A stretch of DNA of 64,000 nucleotides from assembly GCF_016026235.1 (NCBI RefSeq), contig NZ_CP065613.1; one strand, given 5' to 3'. The notes under the pieces were generated by a model. That model was given only the letters and a program-made list of their open reading frames with translations. It was not told the DNA's origin and did no database searches. Position 1 is the first letter of the stretch. The number at the start of each line of letters is the position of its first letter. Shown in pieces: positions 13,132 through 18,132 of this stretch. This stretch comes from Escherichia coli (GTDB taxonomy: Bacteria > Pseudomonadota > Gammaproteobacteria > Enterobacterales > Enterobacteriaceae). Both the position numbers and the translations under genes were made by a program.

Positions 13132-13396
13132 GATATGACTTTCCGTGTCAAACCGGAATCTCTAATTTTGACGATTTTCTTTTTAGGTTTAATTCCCTGA
13201 GGGCGACGTAGCAGTAAATCCGACGGTGAATCACGCTGATATTCGCGGGTTGGATACCGCATTACAGAGGTCCGTCATATGAGCCTGCCACTTTCTTACG
13301 TCGCGAATCAGCTTTGTTCCGCCGTCGCCAAGCGCTAACGTGGGTTACTCTTGTACCGGGCTACGTCGCCTTCAGGGAACTGGTTATTCTCATTTT
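13132..13396 (-). ncRNA. Candidate structured non-coding RNA (bridge/seek-type guide RNA) in the 3' non-coding region of the IS110-family element
   Basis: No credible ORF; long-range inverted repeat CCCTGAGGGCGACGTAGC (13195-13212) pairs with GCTACGTCGCCTTCAGGG (13360-13377) at 17 of 18 positions; strand and exact ends not determined. Confidence 0.3.
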
Positions 13397-14524
13397 TTAT
13401 TTGTGACATTGTGGTTGTTGTGCGACAGACATTGCTATTCGGCCCATATCCCAGATAAAACCCGCCAGCTCACGTGCAACAGCAACAATTGTAATATTGA
13501 CATTCTTTCCTTTGGCCTGAAGTTTTCGATACCTCTTACAAAGCCTGAGTTGAGCATCCCATGCTCTGTCAATGACGGGGCGGGGTAAATTTTCCTGCCT
13601 TTTTTGTATTGCCGGACTGATGCGTGCCGGATGACGGTAACTCCACGCTGCCTCGACCAATAGCTTTCTGGCATAGCTGTTTCCGGCTTTGGTAATGCTG
13701 CCCTGATGTCTGCTTCCACCCGATGAATATTCTGATGGCGTGATACCAAACCATGACATCAGTTGTCGTGGATGTTCAAAACGGGTCAGATCACCCAGTT
13801 CAGAAATTAATCCAACCGCAGTAATAAACTGAATCCCTCGCATGGCTTGCAGCGCCTCTACTACCGGATACAGCCTCCATTCGGTAACGGCCTCCTTCAG
13901 GGCGGATTCCAGCCGTTCACATTGTGCCTGCCGGTCTTCTATTGTACGACGGTGTTCGTCAAAAGCTAATTGTCGCCAGGGACTTTCGAATGAGTATTTG
14001 CTGAGCCAGCGTCGGTGTGCAGGGCCCCAATCTGCTCGCCCGACATAATGGACCCCATGAACCAGAAGAAACGATTTCAGACGTTGCCTTGCATGCCGTA
14101 AATCATCGCGGGCAGATGCCCATGCCCGGGCCAAATCCCGGAATGCCTCATCTTCAATGCCGGGTACGTAGACAGCAGAAAGATCTCCTGCACGCAGTGA
14201 ACGCACAAGTCTGATGGCATCACGGCGATCGGTTTTAACCCGCTCCCCCGGTTTTTTCGGGATAAGTGAGGGGGCGCAGACCATGCAGTCAAAACCGGAT
14301 TTCACCAGCCGACGATAAAGTCCATAACCACAGGGCCCCGCTTCATAAACGATACTGACCTGCGATGACTTTGACCTGAGACGTTTACAAAGATTCTGAA
14401 TATCAGTAGGTGATGTGCCAATTTTACCCATCAGTTCAACAGGTTCTGAATTGATAGCATAAGCGACAGTAATCGATTCTTTGTGAACATCTAACCCGAC
14501 GTACAATGTGTTATTGTTGTTCAT
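13397..14524 (-). CDS. IS110-family (DEDD) transposase/recombinase, 375 aa
   Basis: ORF track 13397..14572; start assigned at MNNNNTLYVGLDVHK; RuvC-like acidic motifs (LYVGLDVHK, VYEAGPCGY, KTDRRDA) and a C-terminal GITPSEYSSGGS...SITKAGNSYARK region. Confidence 0.85.
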   Translation of the reverse strand: MNNNNTLYVGLDVHKESITVAYAINSEPVELMGKIGTSPTDIQNLCKRLRSKSSQVSIVYEAGPCGYGLYRRLVKSGFDCMVCAPSLIPKKPGERVKTDRRDAIRLVRSLRAGDLSAVYVPGIEDEAFRDLARAWASARDDLRHARQRLKSFLLVHGVHYVGRADWGPAHRRWLSKYSFESPWRQLAFDEHRRTIEDRQAQCERLESALKEAVTEWRLYPVVEALQAMRGIQFITAVGLISELGDLTRFEHPRQLMSWFGITPSEYSSGGSRHQGSITKAGNSYARKLLVEAAWSYRHPARISPAIQKRQENLPRPVIDRAWDAQLRLCKRYRKLQAKGKNVNITIVAVARELAGFIWDMGRIAMSVAQQPQCHK

Positions 14525-15559
14525 GCTGGCCTCCGTGGTGGAAATACCGGGGTGTAGCAACAGCTCACCCATGCGGCTCTGACAACGATGTTAACCCGCG
14601 TTAAATATCCCACGTTGGCCAGCATCTGTCTCACGGAAAGTCATACTGCCTTACGGGCCGATGCTACCGGAGCTGCTCGGCGGTTCGGCGGATCTGGCTC
14701 CCAGCAACCTGACCATCTGGAAAGGTTCTGTTTCGCTGAAGGAAGATCCGGCGGGCAACTACATTCACTACGGGGTGCGTGAATTTGGCATGACCGCTAT
14801 CGCCAACGGCATTGCGCACCACGGCGGCTTTGTGCCGTATACCGCAACGTTCCTGATGTTTGTTGAATACGCCCGTAACGCCGCGCGGATGGCGGCACTG
14901 ATGAAAGCGCGGCAGATTATGGTTTATACCCACGACTCAATTGGTCTGGGCGAAGATGGTCCGACGCACCAGGCTGTTGAGCAACTGGCCAGCCTGCGCT
15001 TAACGCCAAATTTCAGCACCTGGCGACCGTGCGATCAGGTGGAAGCGGCGGTGGGCTGGAAGCTGGCGGTTGAGCGCCACAACGGACCGACGGCACTGAT
15101 TCTCTCCAGGCAGAATCTGGCCCAGGTGGAACGTACGCCGGATCAGGTTAAAGAGATTGCTCGTGGCGGTTATGTGCTGAAAGACAGCGGCGGTAAGCCA
15201 GATATTATTTTGATTGCCACCGGTTCAGAGATGGAAATCACCCTGCAAGCGGCAGAGAAATTAGCGGGAGAAGGTCGCAATGTTCGCGTAGTTTCCCTGC
15301 CCTCGACCGATATTTTCGACGCCCAGGATGAGGAATATCGGGAGTCGGTGTTGCCTTCTAACGTTGCGGCTCGCGTGGCGGTGGAAGCAGGTATTGCCGA
15401 TTACTGGTACAAGTATGTTGGTCTGAAAGGGGCAATTGTCGGGATGACGGGTTATGGGGAATCTGCTCCGGCGGATAAGCTGTTCCCGTTCTTTGGCTTT
15501 ACCGCCGAGAATATTGTGGCAAAAGCGCATAAGGTGCTGGGAGTGAAAGGTGCCTGATG

Positions 15560-15597
15560 GTGATCGCCGGATGCTGATTGCCGGATGCGACGCTGAC
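15560..15597. repeat. Left half of a REP palindrome split by IS150
   Basis: GCCGGATGCGACGCTGAC immediately left of the IS; the matching half GCGTCTTATCCGGCCTACA lies at 17030-17062. Confidence 0.7.
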
Positions 15598-16456
<859 letters not shown>

Positions 16457-16481
<25 letters not shown>

Positions 16482-16978
16482 TTCTCCAGCTCCTGGCGCT
16501 TTTTTTCCAGGAGATGCTCCTGCATGGCTTTCAGATATGCATTTTCTGCGCGAAGATAACGCAGCTCATTCTTCATCTCTTCCGGCGTCATGTTTCCCTC
16601 GTTTTCATGGGTATCATTAGAACGGGTCATGCTTTTCTCCTTCCTGCGCCTGATAAAGGCCTCATTACCAGATTTGCGGTAGCCTTTTATCCAGTTTTTA
16701 ACCATGTTGTGGCTGGGAATGTTAAACCGGGCAGCTACCCGGGGTAGAGACTCAGAATGCCCGAGAGCATAAAGAACCACGCAAAGTTTATCTTCAGGAG
16801 AATAGCTACGCTTGTGTCTGCAATCCAGTGCCTGAGGACCGTGAAGAAGAAAAAGATTAATCCAGTGTGAGAGGCTGGTGTGAGAAAGTTGAAAGAGTTT
16901 TGCCGTAGAAATGATGCCTGCATGACCGGCCAGGTAATGATTTACAGCGGCAAGTTTTACTTCAAATGAATGTTTCAT
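16457..16978 (-). CDS. insJ: IS150 OrfA (InsJ), helix-turn-helix DNA-binding protein
   Basis: 173 aa starting MKHSFEVKLAAVNHYLAGHAG; leucine-zipper-like C-terminus. Confidence 0.88.
16499..16505 (-). other. Probable programmed -1 ribosomal frameshift heptamer A-AAA-AAG in the IS150 orfA/orfB overlap
   Basis: Reverse-strand CTG GAA AAA AAG CGC near the end of orfA, with orfB open in the -1 frame. Confidence 0.55.
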
Positions 16979-17029
16979 AAACTGCACCTTCAGATGTCAG
17001 ATTATGTCCAACATTTGGGGTGCAGTTCA

Positions 17030-17062
17030 TGACGCGTCTTATCCGGCCTACAGCGTCTTAAC
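17030..17062. repeat. Right half of the REP palindrome split by IS150
   Basis: TGACGCGTCTTATCCGGCCTACA directly right of the IS. Confidence 0.7.
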
Positions 17063-17088
17063 CGGTCTACATGTCCCCGCTATTTTGT

Positions 17089-18132
17089 TTAACGGGTGAT
17101 CCACAACGTGGGCCAGGCGTCTGGCCCATGCCAGTTATCGCAGGTGGGTTCTGCGGCGTAACGCACCAGGCGAAAACGCTGACCGTCAAAGCGCCAGCGC
17201 GCCTGAATGCCACAATCGCTTAATCCGCGCCCTTTCGCTAAGGTCACCAGCTCACGCGATTTCTCATCAAATGTTGCGTTCATCAGTTCCAGTTCATTCG
17301 TCTCCTGACCGTTGTTGAACGGCAAACGCAACCGAACCGGGCGCGAGGCCAGCGGCTTTTTACGCGACACAATCCATGCCAAATCAATGGTGTTATAGGC
17401 CCCTGCCTCACAGCTAATCATCATCAGCGCTTTATCATCAGTCAGCGCAGTGACATTCACCTCACGACGCAATGGATCAAGCGAGCAGCGCAGACCATTC
17501 ATCCGCCAGTTTCCATAATCCAGCAAATCGTTGCGTTCTTCGAGTGAGAGTGGCGTCGGCGTTGGGTTAACCACCGCGACCTCTTTCAGCGCAGGCGCGG
17601 GCGGTACGCTGAGCGGCGGTTCGTCCCCTTTCTTTATCCACGCGGTTTCACTGCCAACGCGCTTTTGCTGAGCATCAATAAACAACAACGCCGCTTTTAA
17701 GCCACTCAGAGAAATGGTCTGATTGCCGTCGCGTAAGGTGATCGCCTTCCCTTCCTGAATCATCTGCAAAAACGCGGTGATGGTTGCCGTATCATCGGTT
17801 ACTAATAACCATGGTGAAATCCGCCACTTGTCACCACTTAACGCCAACGGCTCACCATCTAACAGCAGCCGTGGCGCTATCTCCCCTTCAGACGCATCCG
17901 GCGATTTCAACCCGCCGCGCTCAATACGTAAAACGGCATCGGTATGCGCCCCGGCGCTGCGGCTCAGGGTCATCACCAGTCCATTATGATCGCCCGTATT
18001 GCGCGCCACGCAGAAGTTTTGGTTATTACAGGTGACCTGCCAGTCGGAAAACGCCCGTTGCGCTGGTGCCGCCCACACCAAAGACGTCGGCAACAAAGCG
18101 AAAAAAAAGAGAAGGAAAATGCGATAGCGCAT
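17089..18132 (-). CDS. ypfG: Conserved exported protein YpfG (DUF1176)
   Basis: 347-aa ORF with an N-terminal signal-peptide-like segment; conserved position. Confidence 0.8.
   Translation of the reverse strand: MRYRIFLLFFFALLPTSLVWAAPAQRAFSDWQVTCNNQNFCVARNTGDHNGLVMTLSRSAGAHTDAVLRIERGGLKSPDASEGEIAPRLLLDGEPLALSGDKWRISPWLLVTDDTATITAFLQMIQEGKAITLRDGNQTISLSGLKAALLFIDAQQKRVGSETAWIKKGDEPPLSVPPAPALKEVAVVNPTPTPLSLEERNDLLDYGNWRMNGLRCSLDPLRREVNVTALTDDKALMMISCEAGAYNTIDLAWIVSRKKPLASRPVRLRLPFNNGQETNELELMNATFDEKSRELVTLAKGRGLSDCGIQARWRFDGQRFRLVRYAAEPTCDNWHGPDAWPTLWITR

Follow-up and report, generated by a model that had tools for sequence, protein, structure and literature searches.

IS1397 was reportedly described by Bachellier et al. 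in 1997, and is said to have been shown by Clement et al. in 1999 to be active and specific for REP/PU sequences. Frameshifting in IS150, which is represented by insJ and insK in K-12, was reportedly shown by Vogele et al. in 1991, and to our knowledge IS150 is not known as a REP-specific element. The heptamer A_AAA_AAG is also used by dnaX of E. coli (gamma subunit), where it is read by the single E. coli tRNA-Lys. The REP specificity of IS1397 has been experimentally shown, and ISKpn1 from Klebsiella pneumoniae is the second IS3-family element for which REP targeting is known from experiment (PMC1525189).

The window, which is the whole 64,000-nt stretch of E. coli DNA analysed here (contig NZ_CP065613.1, assembly GCF_016026235.1), contained a complete IS1397 copy between tktB and ypfG, where it interrupts the loop of a REP/palindromic unit; its features are as follows:

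15598..17029, minus strand: complete IS1397 copy of 1432 bp (IS3 family, IS150 subgroup), identified by named matches, with boundaries given by the empty site in K-12
17005..17029, minus strand: left inverted repeat (IRL), TGAACTGCACCCCAAATGTTGGACA, identical in the nine full-length copies compared
15598..15622, plus strand: right inverted repeat (IRR), TGAACTGAACCCCAAAACCTGGACA, matching IRL at 21 of 25 positions and, like IRL, unchanged in the eight other full-length copies compared
15594..15597, no strand: target-site duplication TGAC on the tktB side; K-12 has a single TGAC, and the flank alignments overlap by 4 bp
17030..17033, no strand: target-site duplication TGAC on the ypfG side, from the comparison with K-12
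15580..15593, plus strand: 5' arm of the split REP/palindromic unit, GCCGGATGCGACGC, from the empty site in K-12
17034..17047, plus strand: 3' arm of the same unit, GCGTCTTATCCGGC, from the empty site in K-12
16457..16978, minus strand: orfA, an HTH DNA-binding protein of 173 aa plus stop (stop codon at 16459-16457)
15630..16505, minus strand: 291-codon stretch of the orfB frame that begins at the heptamer and runs to the stop, with HTH_21 and a DDE integrase core
16499..16505, minus strand: slippery heptamer A_AAA_AAG, the -1 frameshift site; the plus strand reads CTTTTTT
16458..16495, minus strand: 38-nt hairpin, a candidate downstream stimulator that starts 3 nt past the heptamer
16517..16521, minus strand: SD-like AGGAG, a candidate upstream stimulator located 12 nt 5' of the heptamer

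The window copy has the 449-aa frameshift fusion, the inverted repeats, the insertion into a REP loop, and the 4-bp duplication in common with IS1397, and it differs by the rare alleles N121, G128, and S438, which form the allele set of its OrfAB; the exact protein is not on record. It resembles IS150 in its subgroup, in having A_AAA_AAG within the overlap, in the D..D(35)E-K residues, in the 173-aa OrfA, and in a downstream hairpin with a similar stability per nucleotide (approximately 0.35 kcal/mol). In contrast, IS150 has a 6-nt spacer, a conserved stem (GCCTTAGCTC/GAGCTAAGGC), and no SD-like sequence, whereas the window copy has a 3-nt spacer, an unrelated stem, AGGAG upstream, and a slippery site that lies 27 nt further downstream with respect to the conserved AENAYL motif. 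On paper, the locus is also similar to dnaX, which combines the same heptamer with an SD-like sequence upstream and a stem-loop downstream. However, dnaX is a cellular gene in which the shift leads to early termination, whereas the shift in IS1397 leads to a longer fusion, and the dnaX site has a 6-nt spacer, a stronger stem, and no sequence relationship to IS1397. Two IS150-group elements of K. pneumoniae ATCC 13883 (L021 and L030), which are putative ISKpn1 copies, encoded an OrfB that was 54% identical to that of the window copy, and carried the canonical cassette of the subgroup (see below) with a 6-nt spacer and an GCCTTGGTTC stem.

Element identity and transposition competence

We place at roughly 90% the probability that positions 16499-16505 serve an intact IS1397 of the IS150 subgroup as its programmed -1 ribosomal frameshift site, a figure that concerns only which element and which frameshift site these are and excludes transposition competence. 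Megablast returned full-length matches to the element in 1707 of 5426 complete E. coli genomes, at 96.7-99.9% nucleotide identity, and NCBI names these matches "IS3-like element IS1397 family transposase"; the identity as IS1397 was judged against such NCBI-named copies, to which the element is 98-99.9% identical across all 1432 bp. The matched coding sequences equal the corresponding span of 1349 nt in the window in length, and are joined by programmed frameshift in the PGAP annotation of those other genomes. OrfAB of the window differed from an NCBI protein named IS1397 at 3 of 449 residues. Fusions that were modelled with an identical junction for two other copies were exact NCBI IS1397 transposases of 449 aa, and therefore the junction, in which ...LLEKK is followed by APGAG..., is the one used by the annotators. 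The exact OrfAB of the window had no match among 15 billion proteins, and exact matching likewise returned nothing for the 240-aa OrfB or the FDAARGOS_943 fusion; matches were obtained for OrfA.

Domain models supported the same assignment. NCBIfam NF033516, the IS3 transposase model, scored 382.9 bits against a curated cut-off of 160. Pfam detected HTH_28 (E 4.7e-17) and HTH_Tnp_1 (E 6e-8) in OrfA, and HTH_21, rve, and rve_2 in the orfB frame. The catalytic residues D295, D355, E391, and K398 (OrfAB numbering) are spaced as D(59)D(35)E with K at E+7, in agreement with the pattern given for the IS150 subgroup in PMC5771124, namely, D(57-60)D(35)E and a K that lies six residues beyond the E. 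Furthermore, the element ends in TG...CA, and its 25-bp imperfect inverted repeats and 4-bp duplication are as for the IS3 family. IS1397 and its frameshift are already known and are annotated routinely by NCBI, and the finding therefore matters chiefly for annotation, in which the correct name is IS1397 and not IS150.

The inverted repeats, HTH domains, DDE triad, reading frames, heptamer, hairpin, and duplication were all intact in the window copy. The sequence-only reading had suggested from the heptamer and the full-length ORFs that the copy is transposition-competent and not a decayed relic. The intactness of its parts makes this plausible, but open reading frames alone cannot establish activity, because the copy carries a substitution at an otherwise invariant residue (Ser438). 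Two unusual codons were located in the fusion:

15666..15668, minus strand: TCG codon, Ser438; Pro is otherwise invariant, with CCG in most other IS1397 copies
16616..16618, minus strand: AAT codon, Asn121 of OrfA; the remaining full-length copies in the comparison have GAT (Asp)

Judged from its sequence, the window copy is probably competent for transposition. The main alternative, which we regard as rather unlikely, is a copy that is intact in structure yet transpositionally dead or crippled, with Pro438Ser (and possibly Asp121Asn) disabling the protein and the open frames reflecting recency. Such a copy would agree with the conservation of residue 438, which is Pro in all 78 relatives (50-57% identity), in IS150 (TPIEYR), and in most other IS1397 copies. 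The Ser codon was present in the best match of only 2 of approximately 1720 complete E. coli genomes bearing IS1397, and among the sampled IS1397 copies Ser438 was confined to the FDAARGOS_943 / GCA_901482675.2 lineage and strain 21714. In strain 21714, Ser438 occurs in a lone, divergent copy and thus arose independently, as in-situ decay predicts. On the other hand, residue 438 lies 47 residues past the catalytic Glu, outside the DDE triad, and Ser438 copies that are identical or 1 nt apart were found at three REP sites, namely, tktB-ypfG (window, L004, and L091), rof-tilS (L001), and yacG-mutT (L092). These near-identical copies at three sites indicate that the allele spread after the mutation arose. 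FDAARGOS_943 carries four IS1397 copies, including one at tktB-ypfG and a second at another locus that are each 1 base off the window copy.

The distribution argues that the Ser438 allele can still be moved, although transposition by its own transposase, transposition in trans, or gene conversion would fit alike. Gene conversion may have contributed because a Pro438 allele is present at yacG-mutT in a metagenome (L093). If the Ser438 lineage moves itself, then the invariant Pro would be dispensable for transposition, or else the copies were moved in trans. Residue 121 falls in the linker that joins the HTH to the coiled-coil region, and N121 occurs together with Pro438 in one other assembly (L099). 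A simple scan for sigma-70 promoters and terminators found none on the strand of the element, with counts no higher than those of shuffles. One further structure was found at the left end of the element:

16975..17032, minus strand: hairpin that pairs the IRL tip and 3 flank bases with the orfA Shine-Dalgarno and ATG (dG -30.7 kcal/mol, z -5.4)

This hairpin looks like the classic block on the translation of read-through transcripts that enter from outside, and may act as such.

Slippery heptamer and candidate stimulators

The sequence-only reading had placed an intact A-AAA-AAG at 16499-16505 in the orfA/orfB overlap without stating the strand, and the site was confirmed on the minus strand. 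It had also described orfB as open in the -1 frame and both ORFs as full length, and this was upheld by the 173-aa orfA and the 449-aa fusion; an interruption of the fusion frame elsewhere, which it had named as contrary evidence, was looked for and no such interruption was present. The orfA codons at the site are CTG GAA AAA AAG, which sets the register to A_AAA_AAG, and the heptamer sits within an A7 run (16506-16500 on the minus strand, A7G). The overlap of orfA and orfB is 109 nt in length, with the -1 frame open from 16565 and the heptamer in the middle, and no other in-register X_XXY_YYZ heptamer occurs within it. An in-silico -1 slip at this position yielded an uninterrupted OrfAB of 449 aa with the predicted junction peptide ...LLEKKAPGAGEK. 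The orfB frame offers no start codon of its own before a GTG at 16352, 51 codons past the heptamer, and the whole catalytic protein therefore needs the shift.

A second A-run is present on the minus strand at 16475-16481 (GAG AAA AAA CGA AAG), in the loop of the 38-nt hairpin. It offers the in-register tetramers A_AAA and A_AAG, from which a minor share of -1 shifts could also enter the open orfB frame.

What is established for IS3-family elements and for E. coli dnaX suggests how the site would work. The tRNA-Lys molecules on AAA and AAG would both re-pair one base back on AAA AAA, at a frequency that would be raised by the 38-nt hairpin and the upstream AGGAG. Ribosomes that do not shift would make OrfA, which would serve as a regulator, whereas OrfAB would bind the 25-bp inverted repeats and direct a copy-out/paste-in route (figure-of-eight, circle) into REP loops. 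Insertion driven by OrfAB would duplicate 3-4 bp of the target.

The sequence-only reading had proposed that the region downstream of the heptamer be folded for a stimulatory stem-loop, and such a structure was found as the 38-nt hairpin, which had a dG of -13.1 kcal/mol (0.345 kcal/mol per nt), a z of -3.62, and no equally stable counterpart among 200 shuffles. The IS150 stem-loop gave 0.354 kcal/mol per nt by the same method. Folding of the 106 nt 3' of the heptamer as one piece gave a weak z of -1.85, whereas the hairpin taken alone is significant. The frameshift rules of Sharma et al., which were derived from 271 IS3-family members, describe a hairpin that is 17-140 nt in length, begins 4-10 nt past the motif, has a G-C closing pair and at least three further pairs, and has a dG of at least 7.6 kcal/mol (PMC4066793). 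The hairpin in the window is closed by C-G, A-U, G-C, and G-C, is 38 nt in length, and starts at +4; its spacer of 3 nt is at the short end of the permitted range and is a weak point of the structure. Its ddG above the local average was 0.166 kcal/mol per nt, compared with a lowest value of 0.09 kcal/mol per nt for known IS3 stimulators (PMC4066793). The final two bases of the hairpin are the first two of the orfA stop codon. Upstream, AGGA and GGAG at -16 and -15 satisfy the SD rule of the same study, for which the published spacing range is 6-17 nt (PMC4066793). All three elements of these rules, namely, the in-register X_XXY_YYZ motif, the hairpin, and the SD-like sequence, are present in the window.

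Within the hairpin, IS1397 copies varied by one U-A to U-G change, carried by the majority type, and by the loss of one pair in a divergent copy; no compensatory pair change was seen among these copies. The 91-nt frameshift cassette of the window was identical in only 36 of 1724 records; element positions 565 and 574 are G in most copies. A search of 15400-17300 against Rfam at a permissive threshold gave a chance miRNA match only, and no frameshift-element family. A competing fold was observed at 16487-16516 on the minus strand, where CUCCUGG 5' of the heptamer can pair with CCAGGAG 3' of it, so that a 10-nt loop holds the slippery run. This pairing is spanned by a 38-nt window from element position 504, which folded at -13.2 kcal/mol, and it is in competition with the 5' arm of the 38-nt hairpin. 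In the Ser438 copy at yacG-mutT (L092:1950-3381, GCA_901482675.2), a G to A change at element position 510 destroys AGGAG. This copy is a natural variant for probing the role of the SD-like sequence.

Production of OrfAB mainly by transcriptional slippage, in which RNA polymerase adds an A in the A7 run to which the heptamer belongs, is highly improbable. Transcriptional slippage is in use in some IS3-family elements (PMC6211511, PMC5009743). However, efficient slippage in E. coli needs approximately nine or more A/T, and what is seen here, namely, a heptamer in the orfA register, a correctly placed hairpin, and an SD-like sequence, is characteristic of recoding by the ribosome and not by transcription. 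IS150, which has the same heptamer, reportedly undergoes approximately 50% ribosomal frameshifting (Vogele 1991, as cited in PMC5771124).

The element had been labelled an IS150 copy in the sequence-only reading, and this label was wrong. IS150 is alike in its heptamer (at almost the same element position, 530 in IS150 versus 525 here), its two-ORF layout, and its 173-aa OrfA. Against this identity, blastn gave no match to K-12 IS150, OrfB and OrfA were only 50% and 28% identical to InsK and InsJ, respectively, the conserved IS150 stem is absent, the lengths are 1432 and 1443 bp, the inverted repeats differ, and near-identical copies are named IS1397 by NCBI; we consider the IS150 assignment practically untenable. 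That the heptamer is an A-rich run present by chance and without a part in recoding is equally implausible: AAAAAAG does occur 28 times in the window (13.6 expected) and the bare motif is common, but only about 0.008 in-register copies would be expected by chance in the 109-nt overlap (arithmetic from the window density), so the heptamer is non-random by its context (register and overlap), it was kept in 17 of 17 sampled IS1397 copies (those that yielded the flanking anchor sequence) and, as A6G or A7 in the overlap, recurs in 59 of 67 distinct relatives, and no orfB start codon is nearby.

The frameshift cassette among IS150-subgroup relatives

Relatives were sampled as one genome per species and comprised 80 loci with an OrfB that was 50-57% identical to that of the window copy; none had an OrfB identity between 57% and 99% in this sample. 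Among 67 distinct relatives, the in-register heptamer in the overlap was A_AAA_AAG in 47, A_AAA_AAA in 12, and another heptamer in 3, and 5 had none. A shared cassette was recognized in 47 sequences, consisting of AENAYL, the heptamer, 6 nt, and a stem of GCCTTAGTTC...GAACTAAGGC, in which compensatory changes were observed at 4 of 9 pairs among the relatives. This canonical cassette is our own characterization from the 47 relatives and is an unpublished criterion. It is also found in IS150 and in enterobacterial relatives (Klebsiella, Kosakonia, Shimwellia, and Enterobacter).

IS1397 does not conform to the canonical cassette, as the subgroup stem is absent and its slippery site is further downstream. 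At the canonical place IS1397 reads TAT CTG AAA GCC (Y L K A), and the heptamer follows nine codons on. The IS1397 hairpin is shorter than the subgroup stem and unrelated to it in sequence, and its 3' arm lies on the OrfB codons IQSL, which align with the ELR codons of the 3' arm in the relatives. The most economical reading of these alignments is that the slippery site of IS1397 was relocated and its stimulator rebuilt. We also propose, tentatively, the joint reading that the IS1397 cassette was rebuilt in a dnaX-like form and that the window copy belongs to a rare Ser438 sub-lineage present at at least three REP sites. The IS1397 cassette, being unlike that of its subgroup, offers a compact natural test of the combination of spacer, short hairpin, and SD-like sequence.

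REP targeting and the surrounding locus

The empty site in K-12 reads GCCGGATGCGACGC-TGAC-GCGTCTTATCCGGC. REP loops and 4-bp duplications were also found at other sampled copies (L088, L089, L090, and L092/L093), and L100 likewise lies in a REP loop as judged by its flanks. Among the 5426 complete E. coli genomes, only 3 had an insertion sequence at the tktB-ypfG site, and this rarity suggests that the insertion is recent and a rare polymorphism. In NCTC10444 (L006:1199-2630), IS1397 occupies the same base of the tktB-ypfG REP unit in the opposite orientation and with the same TGAC duplication, which indicates an independent hit on one palindromic unit. The REP unit occupied in the window was thus hit independently in both orientations, and the insertion it carries here is a polymorphism both rare and recent.

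A copy in strain CE0007a (L087:512-1943) is located inside the ureidoglycolate lyase gene, a non-REP site, with a 3-bp duplication (CGG); REP targeting by IS1397 is therefore not absolute. Between yhhI and yhhJ, K-12 carries an unannotated 65-nt remnant (L101:1501-1565) that matches the right end of IS1397 at 96.9% identity, and this remnant is shared by K-12 and approximately 1800 genomes that are devoid of a full-length copy. The tktB-ypfG spacer of the window (15552-15597 and 17034-17071) contained nested short direct repeats (GCCTGATGGTGATC/GCCGGATGCTGATT and GCGTCTTATCCGGCCTACA/GCGTCTTAACCGGTCTACA), which flank the REP unit and suggest partly duplicated REP arms.

The tktB gene in the window is itself interrupted by another insertion sequence, 1518 bp in length (13132-14649), the flanks of which overlap by 2 bp. 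Its transposase ORF is located at 13397-14572 on the minus strand and encodes 391 aa. This element was 100% identical to copies of the "IS110-like element ISSso6 family", and FDAARGOS_943 carries ISSso6-family copies at 13 chromosomal places, with tktB intact.
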